From Lachnospiraceae bacterium (GTDB lineage Bacteria; Bacillota; Clostridia; Lachnospirales; Lachnospiraceae), in assembly GCA_017460485.1 (NCBI GenBank), contig JAFUAW010000037.1, positions 5,195 through 69,194 of the forward strand: DNA of 64,000 nt, read 5' to 3'. The notes below the pieces were generated by a model. It worked only from the letters and a program-made list of their open reading frames with translations. It made no database searches and was not told the origin of the DNA. Each line of letters opens with the position of its first letter. The first letter of the stretch is position 1. A program made the position numbers and the translations under genes. Of the stretch, positions 15,286-50,103 are shown in pieces.

Positions 15286-15313
15286 AATGGTGTCAACCAA
15301 TGTTGACACCATT
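15286..15313 (-). terminator. Rho-independent terminator candidate ending the left transcription unit
   Basis: A perfect 12-bp stem AATGGTGTCAAC / GTTGACACCATT with a 4-nt loop, followed on the minus strand by TTTTGT. It lies about 235 nt downstream of the methyltransferase stop. Confidence 0.5.
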
Positions 15314-18365: not shown

Positions 18366-18400
18366 AAATCCTCTCCAAAGCTATTACAAATAATATGCTT

Positions 18401-18907: not shown

Positions 18908-18932
18908 GTACCTCTATATTTTTTCATTATAT

Positions 18933-19910
18933 CTATAAATCTAAACAGTATATCCCCAAGACAGTCTCTGGACAGATTGTCACAAAAACACTCCCCCATG
19001 AGAGGCCTACTCCAAATCCGCTCATAAACAAACTAAGCTTGTCTTTTTTCTGCAGCAACTCCCGATTATGGCACAAAGTCAGTGGGATGGAAGATCCTAT
19101 TGTATTACCGTATTCTTCAATCGAATACAATAGCTTTTCTTTTGGAACATCGCAGATCTCCGCAAGATTATCGATGATCATCTTTTGACCTTGATGAAAG
19201 ACATAATAATCAATATCTGATTCGGATATTCCAAATAATTCTCTTGCCTTGATAATACTTTGGGATACTTCATATAATGTAAATGCAAATACCGCATTAC
19301 CATTCATAATAGTTGACTGTCCATATTGCTTATGAATGACATCATACCGTGTTCCATCAGACTCCTGCATATAATACAGCTCATGTGCTTCTTCCACTTC
19401 CACAGCGATTGCACATCCGGCATCGCCAAATAGTATTTGATCTTCAATTTTTCTCTCTTCTCCATATCTTCCGTCAGCTATAAGAAGCAATCCTTTTCCC
19501 CCGGAATTGTGAAGAATTCCTGCAATGATCTGCATTCCGGCAACAAATCCCGAACATCCCAGATTAACATCAAACACAATACAATTCTTGCCGATTCCTA
19601 ACTTTTTTTGTATCAAAAATGCAGTTGCCGGCTTTTCCATATCCGGCACCTGAGTAACATAGATCAGTGCTTGAATATCATCCCTTCTCCACATAACATA
19701 TTCCAGTACCTTATCAGCTGCACATATAGCCAAATCCGATGCGTTCTGATGCTCAGACAATTTACGGCGTCGTTCCACGCCAGTCATACGAATATGTTTT
19801 GAAAGTCTTTTTTTACCTAATTCTTTCTCATATCCTTCATTATTGACAATCTGCTCCGGTACAGCAGCAGCGATTGCCTTAATAGCGATATTATTATATC
19901 TTCCCTGCAT
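18933..19910 (-). CDS. 3-oxoacyl-ACP synthase III (FabH-like, KAS III)
   Basis: The Cys-His-Asn triad context is present (NLGCSGF, FHQGQ, YGNTIGSS). The start MQGRYNN at 19910 aligns with paralog MHGRYDN and has a GGGAGA RBS. Confidence 0.8.
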   Translation of the reverse strand: MQGRYNNIAIKAIAAAVPEQIVNNEGYEKELGKKRLSKHIRMTGVERRRKLSEHQNASDLAICAADKVLEYVMWRRDDIQALIYVTQVPDMEKPATAFLIQKKLGIGKNCIVFDVNLGCSGFVAGMQIIAGILHNSGGKGLLLIADGRYGEERKIEDQILFGDAGCAIAVEVEEAHELYYMQESDGTRYDVIHKQYGQSTIMNGNAVFAFTLYEVSQSIIKARELFGISESDIDYYVFHQGQKMIIDNLAEICDVPKEKLLYSIEEYGNTIGSSIPLTLCHNRELLQKKDKLSLFMSGFGVGLSWGSVFVTICPETVLGIYCLDL

Positions 19911-21363
19911 GACCATTCTCCCATAAGCATTCTCTTAACCGATTTCTGTCCAACTTACCCATATAGTTTCTGGGAAGAACATCAACCTTAACTATTCTGC
20001 CCGGACGTTTATACTTTTCTATATGTTCTTTAATAAATAAAGAAAGTGCTTTTCCCTGATTATCCCCGGCATTTTTATATACTACATATAATACCGGAAT
20101 ATCCCCTAATACCTGTCTTTCATCTTTTTCCGCAAGACAGGCACATTCCTGTACCAGACCTGACCCTAGTACAACCTCTTCTATTTCTTGAGGAGATACT
20201 TTTTCTCCTCCTATATTCATAATATCTTGTTCACGTCCCAGAACATATATATATCCCGCTTCATCCATATATCCAAGATCGCCCATAAGTAATTCCGAAC
20301 CGACTATGACTTGACTACTGATATCCGGTCTTTGATAATATCCCGCCATGACCATGTCTCCCGATATCACAAGTCTGCCGACCTGATGGATTGCCAGAGT
20401 CTTTTCCGGACAATCGGGATCTGCTATTCGAACCTTAACACCTTCAACCGGTTTGCCAACTGCCTCACAACGATCCATATTTTCAGACACATTCATATAG
20501 ATTGATCTTGCTGCTTCCGTTGCACCATATGAGTTATAGACTGTAACTTTCGGGAGTATCTCATTCAATAACTTTCGGTAATGCGCATTCAAAGGAGCAG
20601 TACAGAATTCAAGCTTATTAAGTATCCCTAATAATGCCGGAAGATTATCCGCGGTCTGCCGGATCAACAACGGTATTGCCGCCGGGATAAGATATGCCCG
20701 TGTACATCTATTCTGATGAATATTCTTATGAGTCTTTTTCAGAGAGGCAAATCCATCTTGAAGAACAAGCGTAGCACCTATATAGAAAATTGCCCGCATA
20801 GTAGTGAGCCCATAAGCATGATGAAGCGGAACAGGAAGCAAACACACCTCTTCTTTCTGAACATTACCGCCATGAATGACATTTTTAGCCCCGGCGATCA
20901 TATTAGCATGGGTCAACATAACACCTTTGGCTTGTCCGGTCGTTCCAGTTGTATATATGATATCTGCAACACTCTTAGATTCAGGCAATTGAATATCATC
21001 ATGTTCAGCAGTTTCCTCATAATCAGAAGTACCTATTGATTCATTTAACATAATACATGACGGCTGAACATCTTCTATCACATCCGATATCGTTTGAATA
21101 GTTGCCGCTTTATCCACCGGAACCGCAATTGCTCCTATCAGATGAATTGCAAAATAGAAAGCCAAATAATCAATATTAGGGACTGCCGCGAGAATTACTC
21201 TATCTCCAATGACAACTCCCTTATCTTCCAATTCCTCTTTTTTTATGATAATCCGATCCACAAAAGATTTATAACTGATCTGATCATCTCCGATTACTAC
21301 AGCTGTCTTATCCGGATGATTCTGACTATTTTTTATAATTGCTTCAATAATAGATTGTCTCAT
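19894..21363 (-). CDS. Acyl-AMP / acyl-CoA ligase family adenylating enzyme
   Basis: AMP-binding motifs YTTGTTGQAKGV, GYYQRPD, GDLGY...GREQDIMNIGGEKV and PRNYMGKLDR. Confidence 0.8.
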   Translation of the reverse strand: MRQSIIEAIIKNSQNHPDKTAVVIGDDQISYKSFVDRIIIKKEELEDKGVVIGDRVILAAVPNIDYLAFYFAIHLIGAIAVPVDKAATIQTISDVIEDVQPSCIMLNESIGTSDYEETAEHDDIQLPESKSVADIIYTTGTTGQAKGVMLTHANMIAGAKNVIHGGNVQKEEVCLLPVPLHHAYGLTTMRAIFYIGATLVLQDGFASLKKTHKNIHQNRCTRAYLIPAAIPLLIRQTADNLPALLGILNKLEFCTAPLNAHYRKLLNEILPKVTVYNSYGATEAARSIYMNVSENMDRCEAVGKPVEGVKVRIADPDCPEKTLAIHQVGRLVISGDMVMAGYYQRPDISSQVIVGSELLMGDLGYMDEAGYIYVLGREQDIMNIGGEKVSPQEIEEVVLGSGLVQECACLAEKDERQVLGDIPVLYVVYKNAGDNQGKALSLFIKEHIEKYKRPGRIVKVDVLPRNYMGKLDRNRLRECLWENGHAGKI

Positions 21364-21368
21364 AATCT

Positions 21369-21599
21369 TTATGCCAGCTTATCTGCTACTATTCTTTTTA
21401 TATCGCCAATAGTATCCATATTAATGACTTCATCATAGACAAATTTGATGCTGAATTCCTTTTCCAACTGAAGAATCAAAGACATAGTAATTAACGAATC
21501 CCAATCCGTTACATTTTCAGGGCTCATATCATCCGTAACTTCTTCCGTTGTATCCCATTCCATTAACTCCCTGAATATCATCTCAATTTTTTCTTTCAT
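21369..21599 (-). CDS. Acyl carrier protein
   Basis: A 76-aa acidic protein with the phosphopantetheine-site context DWDSLITMSLI. Confidence 0.75.
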   Translation of the reverse strand: MKEKIEMIFRELMEWDTTEEVTDDMSPENVTDWDSLITMSLILQLEKEFSIKFVYDEVINMDTIGDIKRIVADKLA

Positions 21600-21618
21600 A
21601 ACATTCCCTCATCAATAA

Positions 21619-22350
21619 CTATTTTTTTTTACGCCCACCGGAAACAGGTATCAAAGCACCGGTAACAGAAGATGATTCTTCAGATATTAGATATCCTGCC
21701 AATGCTGCTATTTCCTGCGGCTTTATAATTCCTAACGGTTGTTTTTTTTCCAATTCTCCGATTATCTCATTACGATATTCCGGTATGATCGTCATCTCCG
21801 TATCAACATATGCCGGCATAACTGCATTTACTCGAATCTTGCGTTTCAAGAATTCCTTGGACATTGTTATGACAGCTGCATTCATCGCTGCCTTTGACAT
21901 CGAATATGCGCACATACCTTCTGTACAATCGAGTGCTGACATAGATGAGATTGCTACAATACTTGCACCATCCTTAGAGTATTTTTTTCTGGAAAAATGC
22001 TTGGCACATTCCACAAATCCGAATGCATTTGTTGCCATTGTCAGATTCAGATTCTCTCTGTCTATAATTTGAACTCCCTCCGAAACAGAAATTCCTGCGC
22101 AATATATCATTGCATCGTATTTGACCGCATGCTGTTCAGACCACTGAAATATAGTCTCTATCTGTTCTGATTCCATTAAGTCTGCAACAATATAATCTGC
22201 ATTTTCTCCCAAAGATGCAACTAACGATCTTAATCTCTTTTCATTTCTGGCAACTGCCACTATTCCGTATCCTTTATGATACAAGTATTCAACTATACTT
22301 TTTCCAATGCCTTGCGAAGCTCCCAGTACCAGACATGTTTTTTCTCTCAT
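21619..22350 (-). CDS. SDR family oxidoreductase (3-oxoacyl-ACP reductase-like)
   Basis: LVLGASQGIGKS (TGxxxGIG-type) and YSMSKAA (YxxxK). The ATG at 22350 has a GGGAGG RBS. Confidence 0.8.
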   Translation of the reverse strand: MREKTCLVLGASQGIGKSIVEYLYHKGYGIVAVARNEKRLRSLVASLGENADYIVADLMESEQIETIFQWSEQHAVKYDAMIYCAGISVSEGVQIIDRENLNLTMATNAFGFVECAKHFSRKKYSKDGASIVAISSMSALDCTEGMCAYSMSKAAMNAAVITMSKEFLKRKIRVNAVMPAYVDTEMTIIPEYRNEIIGELEKKQPLGIIKPQEIAALAGYLISEESSSVTGALIPVSGGRKKK

Positions 22351-22382
22351 ATCATGCCTCCCATGACACATCTTATCATCAC

Positions 22383-23411
22383 TTATATCTTATCTTCATC
22401 ATAATGATCACCCGTTTCCATTACAGGAAAAATATCACAAGTATCAATCGTTGTGTATATATATCCCCATGATAAACCAACGCCAAACCCGCTTATGAAA
22501 AATCGGCATGTATCTTTTGGTTGAAGCAGGTCCCTATTCACACATAGATTTAACAGTACTGAAGATCCTGATGTATTACCATACTCTTCAATCGAACGAA
22601 GTTCTTTTTCCGGTGGTATATTACACAGATCCACAATATTGTCCAGAATTAAGCCCTGTGCCTGATGAAAGGAGTAATAATCAATCATATCCTCCTGTAT
22701 GTTATACAGATTCTTAAATTGCTGAATCCCTTCTGTTACATCATTAATTGCGAATCTGAACACTTCCGGTCCATCCATAGAAGCCGGATTCCCCACGTAC
22801 TTGATAATTGCCTGAAACCCATTTCCGTCAGACATATTCATAAAATACAGATCATTATGTTCAACCTTTTCTAATAATATGGCCGTTGCCGCAGAACCAA
22901 AGAGCATATTATGGGTAATCATATCCTCTGTATAATTCTTCTCCGGATCAATTGCGCGTCCGGACGAATCTGACATAAGAAGCAGAGCCTGTGTATGGAC
23001 GTCACATGCCTGTAACAAAGCAGATACCGTCTGTACACCCACATTAAAGCTGGAACATCCAAGGTTCATATCATAGACAAGACAGTCCTTATCAAGACCT
23101 AATCTTTTATGTAGAAAGAACGCCGTAGATGGAAGCTGATAATTCGGAGCTTGTGTTATTAATATGCAGATTTTCACTTTATGAATATCTACACGTTTAT
23201 TCTCTATCAAATTAACCGCTGCAGCATATGCCAGGTCAGATGCTCGCTGTTCCTTTTTAACTACATGCCGCCTTTTAACACCGGTTAATTTAATCTGTTT
23301 TTTCACTCTTCTTGGATCCATTAAATCTGCATATTCCATATTGTCCTCTACCGTTGACGGAACAGCCGCAGTAATCCCCTGAATCTTTATGTTATCATAT
23401 CTTCCATGCAT
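22383..23411 (-). CDS. 3-oxoacyl-ACP synthase III-like (second copy in the left operon)
   Basis: NLGCSSF, FHQAQ and YGNTSGSS give an intact Cys-His-Asn context. Confidence 0.8.
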   Translation of the reverse strand: MHGRYDNIKIQGITAAVPSTVEDNMEYADLMDPRRVKKQIKLTGVKRRHVVKKEQRASDLAYAAAVNLIENKRVDIHKVKICILITQAPNYQLPSTAFFLHKRLGLDKDCLVYDMNLGCSSFNVGVQTVSALLQACDVHTQALLLMSDSSGRAIDPEKNYTEDMITHNMLFGSAATAILLEKVEHNDLYFMNMSDGNGFQAIIKYVGNPASMDGPEVFRFAINDVTEGIQQFKNLYNIQEDMIDYYSFHQAQGLILDNIVDLCNIPPEKELRSIEEYGNTSGSSVLLNLCVNRDLLQPKDTCRFFISGFGVGLSWGYIYTTIDTCDIFPVMETGDHYDEDKI

Positions 23412-23425
23412 AGAATTGCCATCTC

Positions 23426-23647
23426 CTATCTTAGAAAGTCAATCACATCCTGCACTGTCACAAAACTTGACAAGTCATTCCCCGTCAACATACGATTAAC
23501 CTTCTTTTTCACAATTGCCATCAAAGATAAACGGCTCAGAGAATCCCATTCCTCCAATTCTTCCAGGACCGTATCATTCGATATGGTACCCTCATCCAAA
23601 TCCATGGCATCCTCCAACCATTCAATTATTGTCTTTTCATCCATCTT
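23426..23647 (-). CDS. Acyl carrier protein (second copy in the left operon)
   Basis: MDEKTIIEWLEDAM...EEWDSLSRLSLMAIV. The ATG at 23647 sits 7 nt after a GGAGGA RBS. The longer track ORF (to 23752) overlaps the upstream SDR gene. Confidence 0.7.
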   Translation of the reverse strand, partial: KMDEKTIIEWLEDAMDLDEGTISNDTVLEELEEWDSLSRLSLMAIVKKKVNRMLTGNDLSSFVTVQDVIDFLR

Positions 23648-23648
23648 A

Positions 23649-24410
23649 TCATCCTCCATTCTTAATATGCCGTACATCACCAAGCATGCCACTTGACATC
23701 GGTATATGCGCTCCGGTGATATATTTCGCCTTATCTGAAAGTAAATATTCAATCAAATAAGCAACGTACTCCGGTTCAATCATTCCCATAGCATTTTCAT
23801 GTTCTATCTTCATCTCTTGGAGCATTGGCGTATTCACATAGGCAGGCATGATTGAGTTCACCCGAATTTCTCTGCGAACAAATTCCTTTGCCATTATCGT
23901 AGTATACGTATTGATCAAGGTCTTCGCTCCGGTATAAGCTGCCATTCCTCTTTTCTGGATTATTACTGACATGGAGGACATTCCCACTATACTTGCACCT
24001 CTGTTGGAATATTCTTTCCTTGCCATATATTTCCCTAGCATCAAATACGAGTTAGCGTGTACATCAATCATATCTTCCAGTATATCCGGCTCCATCTCTT
24101 TTACCGGAAGATTATTTGAATATCCTGCGCAATGCACCAGTCCGTCCAACATAAGATTACATTCCTTGCAATATATAAAGATATCTTCTATCCGATCCAG
24201 ATTCTTAAAATCGTAAATATAATATCTGGCATTCTCCCCCAATTCATTTACCAGCTTCTTTAATCTTTCTTCATTTCTTGCCACCAGAATTACATTATAG
24301 TGTTGTTCCGTCAAATATCTGGCTGCAGCTTCGCCAATTCCCGATGATGCACCTGTTATCAATACATTCTTACTCATATCCATATTCTTCCTTTGCCTTT
24401 TATCTATCAT
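23649..24410 (-). CDS. SDR family oxidoreductase
   Basis: VLITGASSGIGEAAA and YTGAKT (YxxxK). An ATGA overlap links it to the upstream gene. Confidence 0.8.
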   Translation of the reverse strand: MIDKRQRKNMDMSKNVLITGASSGIGEAAARYLTEQHYNVILVARNEERLKKLVNELGENARYYIYDFKNLDRIEDIFIYCKECNLMLDGLVHCAGYSNNLPVKEMEPDILEDMIDVHANSYLMLGKYMARKEYSNRGASIVGMSSMSVIIQKRGMAAYTGAKTLINTYTTIMAKEFVRREIRVNSIMPAYVNTPMLQEMKIEHENAMGMIEPEYVAYLIEYLLSDKAKYITGAHIPMSSGMLGDVRHIKNGG

Positions 24411-25408
24411 TTAATATAATTAGGACGATCTTGATCACTCATGCCGCGATATATATGAGCGGAAGATTTATGAAAACTATGGAAGTCCAAATCTACATTC
24501 TTCAGTTCATATGGTTCAAAATAATTCGGAATAATATTAGTATCATCCCTTTTTCTTAAGGTAAAGCCGGCTTTGCTCATAATCTCTCCAGATATACCAT
24601 GACAATAGATATCTGTATATTCGCAATTATGATCTTCCATAAAACGATCTATTGCTGTCCCAAATCCGCATAATGCCTGATCATCACCCAAATAATCCAC
24701 AATTCGAAAAACAATATGTCCATTAACAGCAATAAACCTGCCGATAACAGCCCCTTTATACTGTTCATTTCCTATTCGAAGCACTTCATATTGATAATAT
24801 GGATGTTCCTCATATCTGTGTTTGAGATATTCTTCACTCTCATACGGAACACGGTTCTGAAGAGAATCCCTATCCAACCATTCAAATATTTCATGAATAC
24901 AAGAAGATGTAATATAAGAACCTTGTTCGTTTGCAGGTATTATTATTTTATTTTCGATTTTTGCTACATAATATTTGTCCAGGTCTCTTAATCGATAGTA
25001 CTGCTGCAATTCGCCCATACAGTCTGGTGTCAGAATCTGCAATGCTTTTGCATAACGTTTTTCAAATCCAATACCAATAACATCCTGTACTCCCGGCATA
25101 TTTTCACAGTAATTGTCCAGTTCAAAGCTTAAATTGGAGAATTCACGATTCTTCTTAGTACATACCATTACAGTCGATATATATCTATTGGAAAGGTCAT
25201 AAGACATCGGGATATAACCAACGCTGCCATAGATTTGACCATCTTCTATATCCTCACCAAGGATATAGAAGACTTCTCCATTCCGTACGTGCTGCCACTC
25301 AAATAACTTACGGTCTCGTGCCAGAATATGATCCTTTTTCCAATAGATATCGATGAATTCCATAATCCTGGGAATATCTTCATATACTGCTCTTCGAATT
25401 GTAATCAT
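24407..25408 (-). CDS. GNAT-like N-acyltransferase-type two-domain protein (first gene of the left operon; paralog of 26989..27999)
   Basis: The N-terminus MITIRRAVYEDIPRIMEFIDIYWKKDHILA is GNAT-like. The protein is colinear with 26989..27999 down to the C-terminal DQDRP motif. The exact family was not recognised. Confidence 0.5.
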   Translation of the reverse strand: MITIRRAVYEDIPRIMEFIDIYWKKDHILARDRKLFEWQHVRNGEVFYILGEDIEDGQIYGSVGYIPMSYDLSNRYISTVMVCTKKNREFSNLSFELDNYCENMPGVQDVIGIGFEKRYAKALQILTPDCMGELQQYYRLRDLDKYYVAKIENKIIIPANEQGSYITSSCIHEIFEWLDRDSLQNRVPYESEEYLKHRYEEHPYYQYEVLRIGNEQYKGAVIGRFIAVNGHIVFRIVDYLGDDQALCGFGTAIDRFMEDHNCEYTDIYCHGISGEIMSKAGFTLRKRDDTNIIPNYFEPYELKNVDLDFHSFHKSSAHIYRGMSDQDRPNYIK

Positions 25409-25435
25409 ATATCCGCCTCAATTTCAGCTTTATAC

Positions 25436-25467
25436 AAAAAAAGCAGAAGAAATCTCTATCCTGCTTT
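25436..25467 (-). terminator. Terminator/attenuator-like hairpin in the left-operon leader
   Basis: On the minus strand, AAAGCAGGA-loop-TTCTGCTTT (9 bp including one G-U pair) is followed by a T7 run. It lies between IR-L and the start codon at 25408. The stem is weak. Confidence 0.3.
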
Positions 25468-25472
25468 AAAAA

Positions 25473-25498
25473 GAATCGCGCCTGTCCAAGGCGGACTT
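25473..25498. repeat. IR-L: left copy of the perfect 26-bp inverted repeat GAATCGCGCCTGTCCAAGGCGGACTT
   Basis: It is the exact reverse complement of 26908..26933. Identity ends abruptly on both sides. Confidence 0.9.
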
Positions 25499-25519
25499 TA
25501 AAAAATGATAAACAAAAAT

Positions 25520-25537
25520 AGTTATATCCATATAACT
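25520..25537. repeat. 18-bp palindrome AGTTATAT-CC-ATATAACT inside the switch
   Basis: A perfect 8-bp dyad with a 2-bp centre, about 22 nt inside IR-L and downstream of the outward promoters. Confidence 0.6.
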
Positions 25538-25614
25538 GAATACAACTTTCCCGAAAACTATTTTTGTCTACATCCCTGCACCATTTTGTCGTCCTCCTTG
25601 ACTAACTACATAAT

Positions 25615-25641
25615 ATATCGGCATTCCTTTTAAAATACTTA
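25615..25641 (-). promoter_or_regulatory. Sigma-28 (SigD/FliA)-type promoter TAAG-N15-GCCGATAT facing the left operon
   Basis: The -10 element matches the Bacillus SigD consensus GCCGATAT at 8 of 8 positions. The -35 is TAAG, as at the fliC and flaG promoters in this window. Confidence 0.6.
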
Positions 25642-25654
25642 ATCTAATAAAAAA

Positions 25655-25684
25655 AGAATAGCACATAAAATAAGTGTATGTCAA
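25655..25684 (-). promoter_or_regulatory. Sigma-A-like promoter TTGACA-N18-(TGC)TATTCT facing the left operon
   Basis: A consensus -35, an 18-nt spacer and a TG extended -10 with a 4-of-6 hexamer. It lies immediately upstream of the sigma-28 motif. Confidence 0.4.
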
Positions 25685-25817
25685 TGAATTGAACATATTG
25701 TTAAAGGCAAACGTGCACAATAAACGCTGATTCTATTTCCTTTTCGGAAATTGAAGTGTTAAATATAGTATTTGGTTCACAGCAGCCATAATACAATAGA
25801 AGAAAAGAGGAATAATC

Positions 25818-26909
25818 ATGAATAATCAATCAACTAATCTATCTATCCAACTTCAATTTTTGAAAGACCCGACATGCATGACGTTGTCAGATTATGCCGA
25901 GCAATGGCTTACCATTTATGCCGCCAAACATTTGGAGCGAACGTCCTATATCCGATATGAACAGGTTATCCATTATAATATTCTTCCATATCTGGGGGAC
26001 ATGTCGATCTCAGAGATTAAGCCTTATCACTTGGAATGCTTTTTTTCAACACTTTCCGAACAGGACCTCAGATATGACGGTCATACCGGCGGATATTCTC
26101 ACGGTACGCTATGTAAAATAAAGACTGTTTTATCATCTATGTTTTCAACAGCAGTACAATGGGAATTGATAGAGCATAATCCCTGCAGTAAAATCAAGCT
26201 TCCAAAACGCACAGACATTAAATCTATTAAGTGCTATACAGCAGAACAAATGAAAAGCTTTATCGAATTTCTGTATGATATATATTCCTGCTCGAATGCC
26301 ATGCAATATCAATATTTGGTACTTTATTTGATTGCAATTTACGGCGGCCTCAGAAGAGGCGAATTACTGGGACTGACATGGGAAAAAGTAGATTATACAA
26401 CCGGTACCATCTATATTAATCAGACAATCAATCGAGTGGATGGAAGTTATCTGATCAAATCTCCCAAAACAAAAAGTTCCGTTCGAATAGTAACTTTGCC
26501 TCTTTCTGTTATGAATATTCTTCGCATATATCAGATAAAGCAGGATAATTATCGAATTCAAATGGCAGATGGCTGGCAGGGAAACAATTGGTTATTTATT
26601 CAGAAAAACGGCACTAATATGAGCATCGGAACTCCCTATGCTAAATTCCGTCAATTGATCAAATTATATAATCAGCAAACCAACGCTACTATATATCTTC
26701 CAGAGCTCGGACTACATAGTTTAAGACATACAAACGCATCTCTGCTTATAAGTTCCAATCTCGTTGATGCCCAGACTGTCGCACACAAGTTAGGGCATTC
26801 AAATGTAACAACTACTATGAAATATTACATTCATGCGTATGAGGAAAACGAGAGGAAGACAGCTGCGGTGTTGGAAGAAGTATTACATTTGCCGGGGAGT
26901 AATATATAA
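25818..26909 (+). CDS. Tyrosine site-specific recombinase (phage-integrase family)
   Basis: An N-terminal SAM-like core-binding domain and a catalytic domain with all signature residues in context: GGLRRGE (Arg), HSLRHT (His-x-x-Arg), LGHSN (His) and MKYYIH (Tyr). Confidence 0.85.
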   Translation: MNNQSTNLSIQLQFLKDPTCMTLSDYAEQWLTIYAAKHLERTSYIRYEQVIHYNILPYLGDMSISEIKPYHLECFFSTLSEQDLRYDGHTGGYSHGTLCKIKTVLSSMFSTAVQWELIEHNPCSKIKLPKRTDIKSIKCYTAEQMKSFIEFLYDIYSCSNAMQYQYLVLYLIAIYGGLRRGELLGLTWEKVDYTTGTIYINQTINRVDGSYLIKSPKTKSSVRIVTLPLSVMNILRIYQIKQDNYRIQMADGWQGNNWLFIQKNGTNMSIGTPYAKFRQLIKLYNQQTNATIYLPELGLHSLRHTNASLLISSNLVDAQTVAHKLGHSNVTTTMKYYIHAYEENERKTAAVLEEVLHLPGSNI

Positions 26910-26933
26910 GTCCGCCTTGGACAGGCGCGATTC
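26908..26933. repeat. IR-R: right copy of the 26-bp inverted repeat
   Basis: AAGTCCGCCTTGGACAGGCGCGATTC overlaps the recombinase stop codon by 2 nt. Confidence 0.9.
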
Positions 26934-26988
26934 AATATCTTGTATAAAGAAAGCTGTTTTGTGTACCGGTTTTGGTTGGAACAAATAT

Positions 26989-27999
26989 ATGATTACAATT
27001 CGAAGAGCAGAATTTGAAGATATTCCACGAATAATGGAATTCATAGATACTTACTGGAAAAAAGGGCATATTTTGGCAACGAACCGCTCTTTTTTCGAGT
27101 GGCAGTTCGCAGATGAAGGTATGGTTAATTTAGTTCTGGCAGAAGATAAAACAGCTCAACACATTTATGGAATAAATGGTTATATAAGATATAATCAATC
27201 AGCAACACCCGATATAACAGGTTGTATGTGGAAAGCTCTTAAGACCATTGAATATCCTATGCTCGGATTGAATTTTGGAGAGATTTTATATCAAACTACA
27301 CATGCCAGATATAACATAGGCATAGGATTGAATTCCAGGTCACGACAATACGAAAAACTCAATGGTGCATATGTTGCAAAAATGAATCATGCATACAGAT
27401 TAGGTAATTCAAAAGATTTTCATATTGCTGATATCAAGGATTTTAAAAATAATCCTTATAAAAAAACAGAAAGCAAACTGGAATCAATCACATCTATAGA
27501 ACAATTCAAAAAAAGAATTCCTGTTAGTTTGTTGAGCAGTATTATCCCATACAAAGATTATTATTATATAGAACATAGATACTTCAAACATCCTATATAC
27601 AACTATAATTTATATTCACTAATAATATCCGGGAAACCGATTCCAGCAGTTTTTGTTGTTCGGGAAATCACCGCCCTCGGAAGAAAATGCGCTAAAATCG
27701 TTGATTATTTTGGTGAAGAAAAATGGATCGGACATTCAGGAAAAGCAATTGATGAACTTATTTCTCTTAATAATTATGAATTCATCAGTTTTTACTGTTT
27801 GGGGATCGACAACTCTTACCTGAAAGAAAGCGGCTTCTCTTTCATTGAGGAAAACGATATAAATATCATACCATGTTATTTTGAACCTTTTGAAAAGAAA
27901 AATATTGATATTTATGCTGTTATGATTCCTGAAATCAAGGAAAAAACAAGATTGTTCCTTGGGGATGGTGATCAAGACAGGCCAAGCAAAATTACATAG
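26989..27999 (+). CDS. GNAT-like N-acyltransferase-type two-domain protein (first gene of the right operon; paralog of 24407..25408)
   Basis: MITIRRAEFEDIPRIMEFIDTYWKKGHILA. The first 22 nt are identical to the left paralog. The track start at 26833 would run through IR-R and the recombinase 3' end, so I rejected it. Confidence 0.5.
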   Translation: MITIRRAEFEDIPRIMEFIDTYWKKGHILATNRSFFEWQFADEGMVNLVLAEDKTAQHIYGINGYIRYNQSATPDITGCMWKALKTIEYPMLGLNFGEILYQTTHARYNIGIGLNSRSRQYEKLNGAYVAKMNHAYRLGNSKDFHIADIKDFKNNPYKKTESKLESITSIEQFKKRIPVSLLSSIIPYKDYYYIEHRYFKHPIYNYNLYSLIISGKPIPAVFVVREITALGRKCAKIVDYFGEEKWIGHSGKAIDELISLNNYEFISFYCLGIDNSYLKESGFSFIEENDINIIPCYFEPFEKKNIDIYAVMIPEIKEKTRLFLGDGDQDRPSKIT

Positions 28000-28015
28000 A
28001 AGGGGAGATAATAAA

Positions 28016-28819
28016 ATGAAAATTGCTGAAATTTTGGAATTATGTAATTCAATTAAACGAGAGAAAAAAAAATATTATACCAATTATTATATGACCTATA
28101 ATTCTTCTGACAGTGACTTCATAGTAATACAGAATGAGGGGACAATTGTGTTTCTTGTTAAAGAAGAGTTTTTTTACAGATGCTTTTTCTTAAGCAATAA
28201 TCTAGAAACCCTGATAAAGTGTTTATCAGAAGTTCCCCAAGACTCAATTCTGGATTTTATCGAAAAAGCAGAGAATTGTTCTTTACTGAATACATTTCAG
28301 AAATCAGGATTTAATTCCTACGCGACATACCTAAGGGTATCATCCCCTATCCCACCGAAACCTTATAAAAAAGATAAAATTGAACTATTGTGTGAGAAAC
28401 TATATAACGATAAGCTTGGACAGCGCGCCACGGAATCAGACATTCCTCAATTACGTCAGATATTTCTGGATGTATTTGATGTGAACTGTGATGGAATTTT
28501 AACGGTAGAAAAACTAAGGCGCTCTATACAAAACGGGACAGTTTGGATTTATAAAGCAGATGAAAAAATCTGTACAGTATACATATATCAGGTAGAGGGT
28601 AAAAAGCGCTATGGTAATTTAACTTATAATTGTCTCAGTGCAGATTATTTATATAGTGTATGCAGAAAAGCAAATGAATTATCAGCCAAAGAGCACGATT
28701 TTATTCTTCACTACGGATGGGTTAATGAAAAAAATAAAAAAATAGGACGTACATTAAACACAACCAGTGCGCAGGGATACGACGGTGTCCGCAACTATAT
28801 CTTTCGAAAGGAGAATTAA
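28016..28819 (+). CDS. Hypothetical protein (possibly an acyltransferase-fold protein)
   Basis: MKIAEILELC follows a GGGGAG RBS. I recognised no secure motif. Confidence 0.3.
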   Translation: MKIAEILELCNSIKREKKKYYTNYYMTYNSSDSDFIVIQNEGTIVFLVKEEFFYRCFFLSNNLETLIKCLSEVPQDSILDFIEKAENCSLLNTFQKSGFNSYATYLRVSSPIPPKPYKKDKIELLCEKLYNDKLGQRATESDIPQLRQIFLDVFDVNCDGILTVEKLRRSIQNGTVWIYKADEKICTVYIYQVEGKKRYGNLTYNCLSADYLYSVCRKANELSAKEHDFILHYGWVNEKNKKIGRTLNTTSAQGYDGVRNYIFRKEN

Positions 28820-28821
28820 AA

Positions 28822-29040
28822 ATGAACGAAAAGGAAAAACTGGAAATCATCGCAGAAAGTGTTGAAATGGAGACAGAGGAATTATCAAAGGAGATGGTTC
28901 TGGAAGATCTGGAAAACTGGGATTCTGTTGCAGTATTAACAATAATTGCAGCCATTAGCGACCGACTAGGCCGTTATCCCAGTGCTCAAGATATACTGGC
29001 ATTCAGAACAGTTGGCGATTTGATGAATTACATGGACTAA
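28822..29040 (+). CDS. Acyl carrier protein
   Basis: A 72-aa acidic protein with LENWDSVAVLTIIA (Ser attachment context). Confidence 0.7.
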   Translation: MNEKEKLEIIAESVEMETEELSKEMVLEDLENWDSVAVLTIIAAISDRLGRYPSAQDILAFRTVGDLMNYMD

Positions 29041-29088
29041 ATGCTGATTGGCAGTTGCAAAAAGGTAATTGGATTTAAGGTGATACGT

Positions 29089-29838
29089 ATGGAACTTTTA
29101 AAAGACAAAGCTATTATTGTGACAGGCGCATCTTCCGGACTGGGAAGATCAACTGCTATTGCAATCAGCAAAGAAGGCGGTCGCTTAATTCTGATCGGTC
29201 GAGACGAAACAAGGCTGTCCGAAACTAAAAACATGCTCGAATATTCTGATAACCATATTGCCATTCCTTTTGATTTATTAGAATTCGAAAAATATGACCA
29301 ATTATTTCAGAGAATCAAAGAAGAAAATATTATATTAAATGGAATGGTTCATTGTGCCGGTTTTACAAGAATACTGCCTATTAGGGCTTTAACCACACAG
29401 AATATGAATGAATTACTTGCCATTCATTATATTTCCTTTGTAAATCTTGTCAAATTCTATTCTAAAAAAGGAATGAATGCTGGAGGAAGTATTGTTGGAA
29501 TTTCTGCAATCAATGCTCACATACCGCAGAAATGCATGACTGCATATGCCTCTGCAAAGGCAGCTATGGAGACTGCATGCCGTACAATGTCCATTGAATT
29601 AATCGAAAAAAATATTCGGATTAACTCTGTCGTTGTTGGCAGCATGAGTACGGAAATGTCTAAAGATGTAGCCAGTTCAATAGAAGGAGTATCTTCTTCT
29701 TATGTCAATCCTGTTTCAAGACAGCTGATTCCAACTGTAACTGCAGACGTGATTTCCGGATCAATTATGTTTTTGTTAAGCGATTTGTCATCTTATATGA
29801 CCGGAAGAGAATTATATGCGGATGGAGGTTTATTATAA
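29089..29838 (+). CDS. SDR family oxidoreductase
   Basis: AIIVTGASSGLGRS and YASAKAA (YxxxK). The ATG at 29089 follows an AAGGTG RBS. Confidence 0.8.
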   Translation: MELLKDKAIIVTGASSGLGRSTAIAISKEGGRLILIGRDETRLSETKNMLEYSDNHIAIPFDLLEFEKYDQLFQRIKEENIILNGMVHCAGFTRILPIRALTTQNMNELLAIHYISFVNLVKFYSKKGMNAGGSIVGISAINAHIPQKCMTAYASAKAAMETACRTMSIELIEKNIRINSVVVGSMSTEMSKDVASSIEGVSSSYVNPVSRQLIPTVTADVISGSIMFLLSDLSSYMTGRELYADGGLL

Positions 29839-30689
29839 TGAAACACGATGGAAACAAAGTTATTTTTCATACGAACAAAGGTGTCATTACATATAATGAT
29901 ATAGTTTCTGCATTATATAGGCTTGGGGCCGATCAATGCGATGTATTATTTGTTCATTCAGATATTTCATTTGGACAATTAGATCCTTCTGTCAAAAGGA
30001 AAGAGTTAAAAGAACTACTGCTGGATGCGTTAATGGAAATGAATGTAAAAACTCTTATGTTTCCTACATTTACTTTTAGTTTTTGCAACAAAGAAGACTA
30101 TGATGTTGAACATTCTGTTACTGCCATGGGCATGCTGCCTGAATATGTCAGGAACCGAGAGGATGCATATCGAACCGATGATCCCATTCTTTCTGTAGCA
30201 ATAATCGGAGACCGCTCAGGCTTTGAAAAAATGATAGGACGCTCTTCTTGCGGAACAGGAGGAATCTTTCATCAACTTCATATCAGCGGCAAGAAAGTAA
30301 AATTTCTATTCTTTGGAACTTTGGTAACTCACTGCTTCACTTTTATGCATTATATTGAAGAAATAAAACAAGTGCCCTATCGATATGCACGCCCATTTGA
30401 TGGAACCATTATTCAAAATGGCATTCAAACTCCGAAAACCGTGGATGTATATGTTCGGTATAAGGATGTAGGAGCAACATTACCTAAAGATTTTACATCC
30501 TATATGTTAGAACATGAGATCATGAAGAAAGAGGAATTGGGTATGTCCTCCATTTCAATTGTAGATGAAAGAAGCAGTTATGAGTATATTTGTTCATTAA
30601 TTGATCATGATCCATATGTATTTTCTGTTTTACCTGAAGACGGAGAATTAGTAAAAGAATATAAATATGGCAATATCGTTTCAATGTGA
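29838..30689 (+). CDS. AAC(3)-family N-acyltransferase-like protein
   Basis: The N-terminus (ITYNDIVSALYRLGADQCDVLFVHSDISFGQL) and length match my recollection of the aminoglycoside 3-N-acetyltransferase fold family. The context suggests an amino-sugar N-acyltransferase. Confidence 0.5.
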   Translation: MKHDGNKVIFHTNKGVITYNDIVSALYRLGADQCDVLFVHSDISFGQLDPSVKRKELKELLLDALMEMNVKTLMFPTFTFSFCNKEDYDVEHSVTAMGMLPEYVRNREDAYRTDDPILSVAIIGDRSGFEKMIGRSSCGTGGIFHQLHISGKKVKFLFFGTLVTHCFTFMHYIEEIKQVPYRYARPFDGTIIQNGIQTPKTVDVYVRYKDVGATLPKDFTSYMLEHEIMKKEELGMSSISIVDERSSYEYICSLIDHDPYVFSVLPEDGELVKEYKYGNIVSM

Positions 30690-30702
30690 GAAAGGAAAAA
30701 TA

Positions 30703-30933
30703 ATGAGAGAAACAATACTTAATATATTAAAAGATATCAGACCTGAATTTGATTTTGAAAGCAGTAATAACTTTATTGAAGACGGCTTTTTGGATTCATT
30801 TGATGTCGTTACAGTCATTTCAGAATTAGAATTAAAATACAATATTGTAATTGATGGTCTAGCAGTTATTCCCGAAAACTTCGAATCATTAGATTCCATT
30901 TGTGAGCTGGTAAAAAAGAGTGGTGAAAAATAA
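30703..30933 (+). CDS. Carrier protein, DltC-like
   Basis: A 76-aa protein with EDGFLDSFDVVTVISELE. The LDS(F/L)D context is typical of D-alanyl and peptidyl carrier proteins. Confidence 0.65.
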   Translation: MRETILNILKDIRPEFDFESSNNFIEDGFLDSFDVVTVISELELKYNIVIDGLAVIPENFESLDSICELVKKSGEK

Positions 30934-31991
30934 TGGATTTTCATTTTCAAAACAAACAGATTACCGGTGTATTATCAATTCTTCCGGAAACAGAATACCG
31001 CATGGAAGATGAAGTTATAGATCCCAACGACAGCAAGGTAAAAAGATTGCAGAAGGTGATCGGATACGGTTCTCGCCGCCGGGTAAAAGGCAATACCTGT
31101 ATGTCTGATTTATTATTATATGGACTACGGCATTTAATCAGCTCCCAGCAACTCAATCCGGATGATATAGGTGCTATTATTGTATCCACTCTCTGCGAAG
31201 ACTATTTGTTACCGTCCCTTGGTTGTATATTGCAAGGCGAGCTGGGTTTAGAAAATGATGTATATTGTATGGATACACCACAGGCTTGTGCCGGATATGT
31301 AACAGGATTAATTCATGCCTTTTTACTGCTAGATCATATGCCTAATAAAAAGGTCATTGTATGTACAGGAGAAATCTTAAACCGTAAATCCGATCCAAAT
31401 GAAGCAAAATATGAACATCCATCCTTTGGAGGTGATATTGCTAATATTACCATAGTAGAGAATTGCCATTCTTCTCGGGATATCTATGCAAATTATTTCA
31501 CAGACGGAAGCAGACGTAATGCCTTAATTATTGAAGACGGTGGTTTTCGTAATCCAATGACAGCAGAAAAACTTAAAATGCAGACAAATAATCTTCCATG
31601 TATGGGAGTATCTATGGATGGTTCCGGGGTGTTTAATTTTGTTCAGAAAGAAGTTCCTCCCTCTATCTTTGAACTTTCAAAACAAGCCGGTGTCACAGTA
31701 GATGACATCGATTGGTTTTTATTCCATCAGCCGAACAAATTTATGCTCCAAAAATTGGCAGGTGCATTAGGAGTTCCTTTCAGAAAAGTACCTATGAAAC
31801 TGACAGAAACACTTGGCAATTCCGACTCAGGTACAATTCCTGCTATTATGACTACTGAAGCGGCAGATTCTTTGTTATCCCATAATAACTTATGTTGTCT
31901 ATCCGGATTTGGAGGCGGTCTTACGTGGACCTCTATTATTATGGACATCGGCAATTTAGACTTTTGTGAATGTATCACATCCGACTTATAA
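30933..31991 (+). CDS. 3-oxoacyl-ACP synthase III-like
   Basis: PQACAGY, FHQPNK and LGNSDSGT give an intact Cys-His-Asn context. A TAATG junction links it to the upstream gene. Confidence 0.75.
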   Translation: MDFHFQNKQITGVLSILPETEYRMEDEVIDPNDSKVKRLQKVIGYGSRRRVKGNTCMSDLLLYGLRHLISSQQLNPDDIGAIIVSTLCEDYLLPSLGCILQGELGLENDVYCMDTPQACAGYVTGLIHAFLLLDHMPNKKVIVCTGEILNRKSDPNEAKYEHPSFGGDIANITIVENCHSSRDIYANYFTDGSRRNALIIEDGGFRNPMTAEKLKMQTNNLPCMGVSMDGSGVFNFVQKEVPPSIFELSKQAGVTVDDIDWFLFHQPNKFMLQKLAGALGVPFRKVPMKLTETLGNSDSGTIPAIMTTEAADSLLSHNNLCCLSGFGGGLTWTSIIMDIGNLDFCECITSDL

Positions 31992-32037
31992 ATATCATTA
32001 TTACTATATTAAGCAACACATATCAAGGGAGCTAATT

Positions 32038-33564
32038 ATGAAAAAAAATTGGATTGATGTTTTTCAAAAAACAGTAGAAAAATATAAGGATGCCATCGCG
32101 GTAGTGCACAATAACAAGTCTGCAACTTTTGGAGAAATCCGGCATCGCGCATTATGTATTGCAGCCGAGTTAAACAGCAGGGCAGACGAAATTAACCGCC
32201 CTATAGTAGTACTTCTGCCCAAATCAATAGAAGTAATTTATGCAAATATTGGTATTATGTATAATCATAATATCTTTTCCAATTTAGATGTAAAAATGCC
32301 CAAGGAACGTCTAGGTAATATTTTGAACTGCCTAAAGCCAATTGGCATCATTACAGATACGAATGGATTAAACTTAGTCGATATTAATCCCGACATGTTT
32401 GTTATAAACTTAGACCACATGGATTGGAATTATAATTATGATATTAACTCTATTCTCTGTAAGTTAGAAAAACAAATTGATACTGATCCCTTTTGTATCA
32501 TTAATACATCCGGCTCAACCGGGACGCCAAAAGGCGTGGTACTGAATCACAAAAGTTTTTTCGATTTTATGGACTGGTCTTTAGATGTATTCCATTTCAC
32601 ATCTCAGGACATTATTGGCTCTCTCTCTCCCGTAATATTTGATATATATGAATATGAACTAACCTTAATGATGACAGTCGGTGCAAAAATCGTTTTATTA
32701 GATGCGGGATTGGCAGTTTTTCCGGCTAAACTTATATCAGCTGTAGCTGAACATAAAGTTACATTCATGTTCTGGGTTCCTACGATTATGGTTAATATTG
32801 CCAATATGGATATACTGTCAAGAATACCTCTCCCTTCTGTCCGTACCATCTGGTTTGCCGGAGAAGTATTTCCTACAAAACAATTTAACTATTGGAAATG
32901 TAACTTACCGGAAACTGTATTTGCCAACCTATATGGTCCCATTGAAATCACTCTTGACTGTATCTATTATATTGTCGATCGTGATTTTAATGATCAGGAT
33001 ACATTACCAATCGGTATACCATGCAAAAATACTGACATTTTACTCTTAAATGACTCTGATCAGATATGTCAATCTGACGAAGAAGGCGAAATCTGTGTTA
33101 GAGGAACTTCCCTTGCAATGGGATACTACAATAATCCAGAAAAAACATCTGCAGCATTCGTTCAAAATCCATTAAACAATTCGTACCCTGAATTAATCTA
33201 CCGAACAGGAGATATAGGAGTAAAGTCTTCCACAGACAATCTTATTTATTTCAAGGGAAGAAAAGATAGCCTAATCAAACACATGGGATATAGAATTGAA
33301 CTGTCGGAAATAGAACATATTATGGTAAATGAATTGAAAATTGTAAAAAACTGTTGTGTTATCTACAATTCTTCTAAAAAGGAGATACATGTTTTTTATG
33401 AAAAGAAAGAATTAAGCACTAGAGAAATGCGGGATAAGCTTTTATCAGTTCTTCCTAAATATATGATCCCGACAGTTTGGACAGAGTTAGATGAATTACC
33501 AAGAAATACGAATGGTAAAATTGACCGGCATAAACTCAGTTGTATATCAAATAACAAAGAATAA
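32038..33564 (+). CDS. Adenylation enzyme, DltA / NRPS A-domain-like (amino acid or aryl acid--carrier protein ligase)
   Basis: NTSGSTGTPKGV, GYYNNPEKT, YRTGD, GRKDSLIKHMGYRIELSEIE and PRNTNGKIDR. The ATG at 32038 follows an AAGGGAG RBS. Confidence 0.75.
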   Translation: MKKNWIDVFQKTVEKYKDAIAVVHNNKSATFGEIRHRALCIAAELNSRADEINRPIVVLLPKSIEVIYANIGIMYNHNIFSNLDVKMPKERLGNILNCLKPIGIITDTNGLNLVDINPDMFVINLDHMDWNYNYDINSILCKLEKQIDTDPFCIINTSGSTGTPKGVVLNHKSFFDFMDWSLDVFHFTSQDIIGSLSPVIFDIYEYELTLMMTVGAKIVLLDAGLAVFPAKLISAVAEHKVTFMFWVPTIMVNIANMDILSRIPLPSVRTIWFAGEVFPTKQFNYWKCNLPETVFANLYGPIEITLDCIYYIVDRDFNDQDTLPIGIPCKNTDILLLNDSDQICQSDEEGEICVRGTSLAMGYYNNPEKTSAAFVQNPLNNSYPELIYRTGDIGVKSSTDNLIYFKGRKDSLIKHMGYRIELSEIEHIMVNELKIVKNCCVIYNSSKKEIHVFYEKKELSTREMRDKLLSVLPKYMIPTVWTELDELPRNTNGKIDRHKLSCISNNKE

Positions 33565-33584
33565 TATTGGCAATAGGAATTACT

Positions 33585-34448: not shown

Positions 34449-34555
34449 TGATCATGTAACTCTTACAAACGCAAATTTGCAAATCTCTCCAAAATAGACT
34501 AAAATAGATATGTAAATATAGAACCAATTATAAAGTACTAATTGAGGATAAGACC

Positions 34556-35605: not shown

Positions 35606-35655
35606 TCCTTATATCTCAAGATTAAGATCTATTATGAAACACAGGAGAGATTACA

Positions 35656-50041: not shown

Positions 50042-50067
50042 ATATCGGATGTTTTATCCGATACTTA
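50042..50067 (-). promoter_or_regulatory. Sigma-28-type promoter of fliC (TAAG-N14-TCCGATAT)
   Basis: The -10 matches GCCGATAT at 7 of 8 positions, about 100 nt upstream of the fliC start. Confidence 0.6.
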
Positions 50068-50103
50068 ATACCTAAATTTAATTTTTTTAAAATTTTTTCA
50101 AAT

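Follow-up and report, generated by a model that had tools for sequence, protein, structure and literature searches.

The hin/fljBA (H2) switch of Salmonella carries its recombinase gene on board, has an outward-facing promoter at one end, and presents a flagellar surface antigen in two alternating forms. A similar layout is found in DNA from a Lachnospiraceae bacterium (GenBank assembly GCA_017460485.1, contig JAFUAW010000037.1, positions 5,195 to 69,194 of the forward strand). This stretch of 64,000 nucleotides, called the window below, contains a 1461-bp segment that encodes a tyrosine recombinase, is bounded by 26-bp inverted repeats (IR-L and IR-R), and separates two divergent acyl-modification operons. 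In Salmonella, however, the switch turns a single operon ON and OFF, relies on the FljA repressor for alternation, and varies the flagellin protein rather than its glycan. In the window, by contrast, one promoter appears to be physically aimed at either of two operons, and it is the glycan decoration that would vary. The enzymes differ as well: Hin belongs to the serine invertases and requires both an enhancer and Fis. A first-pass annotation of the window had described the locus as a hin/fim-like toggle, and the inversion and the outward promoter that this description implies are now supported. Assignment to the Hin/Gin/Cin serine invertase class was rejected, however, because the only recombinase at the locus belongs to the tyrosine family. 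Its chemistry is like that of fim or RecV, and the likeness to hin lies only in the layout.

The sap locus of Campylobacter fetus also directs one promoter to two outputs. A promoter on an invertible element is placed before either of two opposed genes for alternative surface structures, which are S-layer proteins, and inversion occurs by RecA-dependent homologous recombination between the conserved 5' ends of the genes. The crossover in the window falls instead within a 26-bp site-specific core, although the first genes of the two operons do share conserved 5' ends. In fim-type switches, the recombinase genes lie outside the invertible element. The fimS (FimB/FimE), ipuS, and hyxS elements of E. 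coli are like the window in that a promoter-bearing element is flipped by tyrosine recombinases encoded at the locus, but they have 9-bp repeats and a sigma-70 promoter, turn one operon ON or OFF, and control fimbriae (PMC6083910). The flgB switch of C. difficile likewise operates in a member of the Clostridia on the flagellar regulon, uses a tyrosine recombinase (RecV) and short inverted repeats, and, as may be the case in the window, sits in a long leader where the outcome is set after transcription has started (PMC5386303, PMC7446863). Unlike the window, it is a short leader element that turns flagellum synthesis ON or OFF via Rho-dependent termination, and RecV is encoded elsewhere and serves several switches (PMC5386303, PMC7446863).

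Two further systems resemble the predicted phenotype rather than the architecture. The invertible promoters of capsular polysaccharide loci in Bacteroides also vary a surface glycan of gut commensals by promoter inversion, but they are many separate ON/OFF promoters whose recombinase is encoded elsewhere, and no two-operon toggle is among them (PMC10403206). The flagellin glycan of Campylobacter jejuni is phase variable, is built from nonulosonic acid, and involves multiple maf genes, as is predicted for the window, yet the variation arises through slipped-strand mispairing in homopolymeric tracts of individual genes (PMC3068675, PMC13130089). In full-text searches, we found no paper tying flagellin glycosylation, or the flagella of Roseburia or Lachnospiraceae, to invertons or invertible promoters. 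One large survey of invertons mentions flagellar functions only as generally enriched (PMC11602134).

The segment inverts naturally. Assemblies holding the exact recombinase protein were retrieved from public data and aligned with the window at the nucleotide level. One 129.6-kb contig (ENA ERZ27256833, hereafter L001) is 100% identical to window positions 15497-25498 and 26908-36588, and carries the intervening piece reversed. The identical flanks add up to 19.7 kb, and the breakpoints fall within the repeats. Both junctions are as predicted: the leader of the right operon is joined through a repeat to the promoter end of the segment, and the recombinase stop codon is joined through the other repeat to the leader of the left operon. 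In L001 the recombinase consequently faces the left-type operon. This contig represents the opposite-orientation locus that the first-pass annotation had expected to exist if the segment is invertible, and a gene call specific to the inverted form is present on two contigs. Three marks of an inverton are found at this locus: a segment bounded by inverted repeats, a tyrosine recombinase with complete catalytic residues, and the natural occurrence of both orientations, the breakpoints falling in the repeats.

Another contig (L002) is exactly 1461 bp in length, matches the segment from repeat to repeat at 100% identity, and recurs in four samples. Two contigs from a related lineage carry a recombinase that is 78% identical to that of the window. 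One of these (L004, 1471 bp) likewise spans exactly from repeat to repeat, whereas the other (L003, 1760 bp) has the starts of divergent paralogous genes at its two ends. Because assembly graphs yield repeat-to-repeat contigs when both junction types occur in the reads, these contigs indicate that both were present. The 26-bp repeat is shorter than the reads and shorter than the k-mers used by assemblers (31 for Logan unitigs and 141 as given in “k141_” contig names), and it therefore cannot by itself break the assembly graph or misorient the segment.

The exact proteins of the window are those of an NCBI MAG labelled Lachnospiraceae bacterium (IJ079_02070 to IJ079_02080), and this MAG has the window orientation, as does a strain that is 99.89% identical (L013, 0.11% diverged). 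Orientation therefore does not follow strain divergence, since this strain retains the window orientation and the 100%-identical L001 is reversed. These observations bear on the possibility that a single old inversion separates two strains in which switching has since ceased. The two orientations do come from different assemblies. However, a fixed polymorphism is very improbable given the complete identity of the flanks in the two orientations, the position of the diverged strain, the repeat-to-repeat contigs in four samples that indicate both junction types in each, and a recombinase and sites that are intact, with repeat arms that co-vary between lineages.

The repeat itself is GAATCGCGCCTGTCCAAGGCGGACTT, with its exact reverse complement at the far end of the segment (Table 1). 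Identity between IR-L and IR-R breaks off at the repeat ends, and the sequences directly outside the two repeats differ, although the leaders on both sides have TTGTATAAAG in common. A perfect 26-bp inverted repeat around the recombinase gene had been reported in the first-pass annotation, and its coordinates, its sequence, the abrupt end of identity, and the 2-nt overlap with the stop codon were all reproduced. No third copy of the 26-mer was found in the 64-kb window at up to three mismatches (chance expectation 0.00). With only two sites at this threshold, a shufflon or other multiple-inversion system, which would comprise at least three, was ruled out. Exact-pattern scans for the repeat core found nothing in GTDB species genomes or JGI metagenomes; the lineage of the window is present only in data from ENA, Logan, and NCBI metagenome-assembled genomes (MAGs).

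We propose to parse the site as imperfect dyad arms, ending in CGCC/GGCG, that would flank a 7-bp asymmetric spacer, TGTCCAA. In the related lineage represented by L003 and L004, the repeat is AGTCGCGCCTATCCAAGGCGGACTTTAAA, which differs from the 26-mer of the window at two positions and does so identically in both arms. One of the two differences changes the proposed spacer from TGTCCAA to TATCCAA. Tyrosine recombinases require identical overlap regions in their partner sites, and so co-variation of the spacer in both arms is expected of a working site.

The recombinase matches Pfam families Phage_integrase (PF00589) and Phage_int_SAM_3 (PF14659, a SAM-like core-binding domain), and its closest solved structure is the Tn1549 integrase (6EN0/6EMZ). 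The motifs GLRRGE, PKTKSSVR, HSLRHT, GHSN, and KYYIH, which contain the catalytic R, K, HxxR, H, and Y residues, all align with the active-site motifs of 6EN0. The earlier description of an intact enzyme with a full catalytic set therefore stands. Homologs that are at most 52% identical are integrases of 427 to 440 amino acids with about 52 additional N-terminal residues, such that residue 21 of the switch recombinase aligns to residue 73 of a longer homolog. The distant homologs (P0003, P0006, P0011, P0013, and P0016) reside in ordinary mobile-element settings rather than in switches, and their neighbors are Xis-like HTH_17 or HTH genes, toxin-antitoxin pairs, or replication genes. Unlike these closest homologs in mobile elements, the recombinase at the switch locus has no Xis gene or other element genes beside it. 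We infer that the protein is a conjugative-transposon or phage-type integrase that has been cut down to a simple invertase. An integrase module of the Tn916/Tn1549 or phage type was rejected, as the N-terminal part, Xis, and element genes are missing, the sites are inverted, and the event is an inversion. The on-board recombinase most likely catalyzes the inversion. It has a single near homolog among 5.8 billion proteins (P0002, the enzyme found on the two contigs of the related lineage, L003 and L004).

We consider it likely that the segment is a phase-variation switch that aims one promoter module at either of two acyl-modification operons within a flagellin glycosylation island. In the mechanism that we propose, conservative site-specific recombination at the pair of 26-bp sites would invert the segment. 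A single outward promoter module, located upstream of the recombinase gene and divergent from it, would comprise a SigD-type promoter, possibly a sigma-70-type promoter, and a structured leader of ~110 nt. In the window orientation this module would read through IR-L into the left operon and, after inversion, through the same site into the right operon, while the operon at the 3' end of the recombinase gene would receive at most read-through from that gene. Each operon appears to encode a tandem-GNAT (N-myristoyltransferase-like) acyltransferase first, followed by a different set of ACP, KAS III, SDR, and ligase proteins. The nonulosonic-acid glycan of flagellin would thereby receive one of two acyl groups in each cell lineage, in step with late flagellar gene expression. 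The activity of the promoter, the mutually exclusive expression of the operons, and the chemistry and target of the modification are predictions from sequence.

The proposed promoter lies in the 320-bp noncoding part of the segment and reads TTAAGTATTTTAAAAGGAATGCCGATAT on the minus strand. Relative to the published SigD consensus, TAAA-N15-GCCGATAT (PMC5200910), it matches at eight of eight positions of the -10 box and three of four positions of the -35 box. The flagellin gene of the window provides an internal reference, because its upstream region contains TTAAGTATCGGATAAAACATCCGATAT, in which the motif takes the form TAAG-N14-TCCGATAT. These are the only two matches to the two-box SigD-type motif in 64 kb, where 0.03 would be expected. 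The -10 element GCCGATAT alone is not enriched (four occurrences versus 2.9 expected), and specificity lies in the two-box motif. The SigD-type promoter is conserved in the related lineage (L003) and in a second relative without a switch (L015). A weak candidate for a sigma-70-type promoter just upstream is kept in L003 but has a degraded -10 box in L015. Generic promoter and terminator scans did no better than chance and carry no weight here. The first-pass annotation had placed outward-facing promoters at both ends of the segment, but a recognizable one is carried only by the end that lies 5' of the recombinase gene, and it is divergent from that gene. Its statement that the leaders outside the repeats have no recognizable promoter held up in a promoter scan, in which these leaders of 55-64 nt lacked good promoters.

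Comparison with the two relatives bears on which operon is ON. Relative to L003, the repeat, promoter, and leader (25473-25690) are 86.5% identical and the recombinase coding sequence is 76.5% identical, whereas the upstream region proximal to the recombinase gene and the right leader are at 57.6% and 47%, respectively. In L015, the gene order is NeuC-NeuB, a 448-bp gap, and a left-type operon, with neither a recombinase nor a right acyl-modification operon. This locus is collinear with window positions 25690-22386 at 96.8% identity, including the SigD-type promoter and leader, and it has a decayed single copy of the recombination site, GGTCAGCTTTGGATAGGTGCGACTC. What the window has in addition is ~8.9 kb (25691-34555) that contains the recombinase gene, IR-R, and the nine-gene right operon. 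Because the promoter half of the segment is collinear and fixed in the switch-less L015, it represents the native upstream region of the left-type operon. The window would thus capture the state in which the left operon is ON, and L001 the state in which the right operon is ON.

The same inversion could in principle have the opposite polarity, with read-through from the recombinase gene's own promoter turning ON the operon at its 3' end (the right operon in the window), as in hin-fljBA. There is no terminator from the recombinase stop codon to the right operon, and in a second family of switches described below the outward promoter does sit at the 3' end of the recombinase gene. On the plus strand of the window, however, there is no SigD-type or good sigma-70 motif near that end or upstream of the recombinase gene, conservation of the segment relative to L003 is lowest in the recombinase-proximal upstream region, and L015 presents the minus-strand promoter and leader as the native driver of a left-type operon. 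Reversed polarity is therefore unlikely.

The comparison with L015 also argues against the segment being a small IS-like or integrative mobile element bounded by terminal inverted repeats. Such an element, or an assembly artifact, might be suspected because the recombinase descends from mobile-element integrases and because contigs end exactly at the repeats, as they do with multi-copy insertion sequences. Yet both orientations of the segment are found at one and the same site, positions 25473-25690 are native chromosomal upstream DNA in L015, and no other copy or context was found in the window or in the public collections searched. An assembler would not misorient a segment whose repeats are shorter than the reads and k-mers, and an independent second family behaves alike. 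We regard either explanation as extremely improbable. An insertion sequence in particular was rejected, given the single locus, the native DNA at 25473-25690, and the different sequences outside the two repeats.

The RNA made from the SigD-type promoter would carry a structured leader. A hairpin within the segment has a predicted stability of -21.8 kcal/mol (z = -5.0), and all four of the substitutions observed in relatives retain pairing solely as G-U on the minus-strand RNA. This pattern is suggestive of minus-strand transcription of the leader, as judged from three sequences. A mini open reading frame (mini-ORF) encoding MVQGCRQK (minus strand, region 25558-25599) follows a strong AAGGAGG Shine-Dalgarno sequence and runs into the hairpin's 5' arm. 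The mini-ORF is conserved at 100% in L003, while L015 has a shortened version, MQGCR. Together, the mini-ORF and hairpin could be a device for leader-peptide attenuation. A second hairpin lies outside the repeat, ~30 nt ahead of the left operon's start codon. Both L003 and L015 retain it, one pair having changed in a compensatory manner, and it is a putative terminator or attenuator. Because a hairpin followed by U7 is present in the left leader and none is found in the right leader, regulation may differ between the two switch outputs. A scan of 25200-27200 with Rfam (E values up to 1) identified no known RNA family and hence no known riboswitch, such as one for c-di-GMP.

A second and independent family of switches was encountered when GTDB species genomes were searched with the family of proteins encoded by the first gene of each operon. 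Relatives occur at no fewer than 454 loci, mostly in Lachnospiraceae, Roseburia, and Eubacterium, and also in Lacrimispora, Lysinibacillus, and Helicobacter cinaedi. Among the best 79 of these at least 454 loci, which were the ones examined, 10 have a tyrosine recombinase of ~331 amino acids adjoining the first-gene homolog. These enzymes are only 24% identical to the recombinase of the window, and their hosts are Roseburia, Eubacterium, Lachnoclostridium, and other Lachnospiraceae MAGs. Each of the 10 recombinase genes is enclosed by near-perfect repeats whose perfect arms measure 24-60 nt. When perfect repeats were required to be at least 18 bp long and 100-4500 bp apart, they were found at every one of the 10 loci with a recombinase and at none of the other 69, a distribution that indirectly fits dependence of inversion on the cognate recombinase. 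The core, TATCCTTAAG-N7-CTTAAGGATA, is present in nine of the 10 (L018 has a variant), and variants of the spacer are the same in both arms.

The promoter type recurs along with the repeats. At eight of the 10 loci, TAAG-N15-TCCGATAT is located ~15 nt inside one repeat and faces outward at the 3' end of the recombinase gene. Four of the 10 loci are flanked on both sides by divergent first-gene paralogs, and L019 has ACP/SDR/KAS III/ligase operons on both flanks. Both orientations have been recovered in this family as well. A scan of JGI metagenomes for the second-family core yielded four contigs, which sufficed for one inversion pair but are too few to estimate frequencies. In this pair, GTDB locus L042 and JGI contig L098 are 99.5% identical in the flank and 97.8% identical in the segment, which is reversed. 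In the outer arm, a variant base remains with the flank, whereas the inner arm travels with the segment, which places the crossover inside the core.

Like the window, the second family has a recombinase segment beside or between divergent operons led by an acyltransferase gene, an outward SigD-type promoter, and both orientations in nature. There are also differences: the recombinases are only 24% identical, the core sites are unrelated, and the segment is ~1.1 kb long. In addition, the second-family promoter reads in the same direction as the recombinase gene, at whose 3' end it is located, whereas that of the window is at the 5' end and divergent. No relic of the second-family core was found in the window, and there is consequently no evidence that the switch of the window originated from a second-family switch through exchange of its recombinase. 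Judging from these sequences, the same design is one that has been assembled at least twice from different recombinases and sites.

Some second-family loci have a more elaborate arrangement. In L052 (5705-8310), L061 (3571-5876), and L068 (2059-5900), the repeats, separated by 2.2-3.7 kb, enclose additional sequence besides the recombinase gene; in L052, an acyltransferase-like gene itself is within the repeats. The repeats at these three loci extend outward into a shared leader and may reflect nested or larger cassette inversions.

The recurrence of the promoter also bears on the possibility that a genuine inversion leaves regulation unaffected. In that case, the operons would have their own promoters, and the flip would merely alter the surroundings of the recombinase gene or fine-tune expression. 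A weak promoter-like match does lie over the left leader (25427 to 25398), the sequence TTGTATAAAG is shared by both leaders, and the OFF operon may get read-through. However, the leaders are only 55-64 nt long and have no good promoters, and a conserved SigD-type promoter is found just within one repeat in nine independent switches from two recombinase lineages. Moreover, L015 shares no upstream sequence with the window other than this promoter and leader. An inversion without regulatory consequence is therefore quite unlikely.

Several points weigh against the reading of the segment as a promoter switch for flagellin decoration. The evidence for inversion comes from assemblies. The promoter is a motif match with a -35 box of three out of four, and a generic sigma-70 scan of the region is at chance (10 matches versus 8.0 expected). 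Two hairpins with U runs stand between the promoter and the left operon and could terminate transcription. Switch output may accordingly depend on an anti-termination step, and within the locus these structures are the chief reservation about a simple promoter flip. Furthermore, no terminator was found between the recombinase gene and the operon at its 3' end, and the OFF operon may leak. Comparative support within the lineage consists of three sequences, with one close relative of the recombinase among the 5.8 billion proteins. The NeuB/NeuC genes may belong to the switched unit or stand apart from it, and the link to flagellin is made through gene neighborhood and promoter type.

On balance, we lean toward the view that Lachnospiraceae of the gut and rumen, including Roseburia and Eubacterium, commonly carry self-contained switches in which a tyrosine recombinase and a sigma-28 promoter toggle acyl-modification operons to give clonal populations two antigenically distinct flagellin glycoforms, and that such switches arose at least twice, from unrelated recombinases and sites. 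If so, this would be the first inversion-based variation of a flagellin glycan and an unrecognized layer of flagellar antigenic variation in commensals. Lachnospiraceae flagellins are among the dominant bacterial antigens for the gut immune system, and flagella serve as phage receptors. Recurrence with a different recombinase in at least 10 other genomes points to selection for bistable flagellar decoration. Loci of this type break up metagenome assemblies, and to annotate them as “phage integrase” is an easy mistake. The compact toggle, which comprises 1.46 kb with one enzyme, two 26-bp sites, and two operon outputs, could also serve as a genetic part. With both states documented in nature, the locus opens phase variation of flagellar glycans in abundant gut commensals to direct tests.

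Table 1. Features of the invertible locus in window coordinates, with the loci of the second switch family
Feature	Position	Strand	Description
Invertible segment, repeat to repeat	25473..26933		1461 bp; reversed in L001; stand-alone contig L002
IR-L, proposed core recombination site	25473..25498		Imperfect dyad arms flanking 7-bp asymmetric spacer TGTCCAA (proposed)
IR-R	26908..26933		Exact reverse complement of IR-L; shares 2 nt with recombinase stop codon
Tyrosine recombinase, 363 aa	25818..26909	+	Tn916/Tn1549-Int-like catalytic and core-binding domains; without N-terminal arm-binding region
SigD/sigma-28-type promoter (motif match)	25615..25642	-	TTAAGT-N14-GCCGATAT (= TAAG-N15-GCCGATAT); outward through IR-L
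Candidate sigma-70-type promoter (weak)	25655..25684	-	TTGACA-N18-TATTCT with TG; outward, just upstream of SigD-type promoter
Structured leader within segment	25501..25584	-	8-codon mini-ORF, 25584 to 25558; overlapping hairpin, 25577 to 25501, then U run
Left-operon leader outside repeat	25409..25472	-	Hairpin, 25467 to 25440, then U7
Left acyl-modification operon	17118..25408	-	Predicted ON in window orientation
Right-operon leader outside repeat	26934..26988	+	No hairpin, no recognizable promoter
Right acyl-modification operon	26989..34448	+	Predicted ON in L001 orientation
121-nt inverted repeat, 80%	25292..25412 and 26985..27105		N-terminal coding sequence common to both first genes
Flagellin gene promoter	50042..50068	-	TTAAGT-N14-CCGATAT; internal reference for SigD-type motif
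Second-family loci (GTDB)	L016, L017, L018, L019, L021, L042, L046, L052, L061, L068		
Second-family metagenome contigs	L095-L098		

The left operon encodes, in order, a tandem-GNAT N-acyltransferase-like protein, an SDR, an ACP, a KAS III, an SDR, an ACP, an AMP-ligase, a KAS III, and two unknown proteins. A methyltransferase gene (15547-16761) is separated from it by a 356-bp gap. In the diverged strain L013 (4085-5546), the left-operon AMP-ligase was called as two pieces of 364 and 130 amino acids, which reflects either an inactivating frameshift or a sequencing error. The right operon encodes a paralogous N-acyltransferase-like protein, an unknown protein, an ACP, an SDR, an aminoglycoside-N-acetyltransferase-like protein, an ACP-like protein, a KAS III, an AMP-ligase, and a formyltransferase-like protein. 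The NeuB/NeuC genes (34556-36810) follow after a 107-bp gap with a weak sigma-70-like match, and they stand alone in L015. The switchable right unit probably ends at 34448, and NeuB/NeuC may be expressed in both switch states.

These gene lists bear out some of what the first-pass annotation said of the operons and amend the rest. It had described two mirror-image units of ~10 kb. The units are indeed divergent and open with paralogous genes, but they are not exact mirror images and are not clearly 10 kb each. The right unit had been run on to 36810, beyond its probable end and across the gap before NeuB/NeuC. The strong hairpin that had been placed at the end of the left unit (15547) was not confirmed, and the sole hairpin is ~240 nt further on at ~15290-15309. 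The assignment of ACP, KAS III, SDR, and adenylase (AMP-ligase) enzymes to both units was correct, as was the paralogy of the opening genes. The two first-gene products (333 and 336 amino acids) are 34% identical overall and share 31 of their first 38 residues, and the corresponding DNA forms the 121-nt inverted repeat with 80% identity. Their similarity at the 5' end suggests either duplication of a module composed of site, leader, and gene start, or gene conversion beside the switch. Extended repeats of this kind occur elsewhere, with 69 nt at 88% in L003 and 309 nt at 71% in L061 of the second family.

The first-gene proteins have no Pfam or NCBIfam family, and searches of the PDB, Pfam, and NCBIfam with a first-gene protein and two other unknown operon proteins returned nothing useful. 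An AlphaFold model of the first-gene protein, built with 35 homologs (pLDDT 93.7), has as its top fold matches the N-myristoyltransferases, which are tandem-GNAT enzymes (E value 5e-11, TM score 0.45-0.48). The modeled fold is consistent with the first genes encoding N-acyltransferases that would use an acyl donor supplied by the other enzymes of the respective operon.

The window as a whole is a late-flagellar and flagellin-glycosylation island, in agreement with the context that had been assigned to it. Its flagellar genes encode flagellin (49134-49937), FliD, FlaG, two FlgK paralogs, and an FlgL-like protein. The glycosylation genes encode five Maf/MptE-like transferases, several GT2 enzymes, NeuB, an NeuC-like epimerase, a PseB-like dehydratase, and two cytidylyltransferases. 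The Maf/MptE-like paralogs are located at 7889-9724 and 39012-46130, with four in tandem, an arrangement that fits several glycans or acceptor specificities. The two FlgK-like hook-associated protein genes (624 and 590 amino acids) adjoin one another at 56375-60167.

Parts of the island appear to be exchangeable. In L015 (9553-10000 and 16616-19781), which retains the decayed single site, the genes past the second KAS III of the left-type operon encode LicD, nucleotidyltransferase, ACP, and DUF1919 proteins, and these replace the window's genes for a 168-aa protein, a 415-aa protein, and the methyltransferase, indicating that the island exchanges cassettes. A further group of genes midway through the island (11718-15296) encodes two ATPases, AAA_14/DUF4143 and AAA-ATPase_like with a PD-(D/E)XK nuclease domain, with a gene for a metallo-beta-lactamase-fold protein between them, and it looks like an insertion unrelated to glycosylation.

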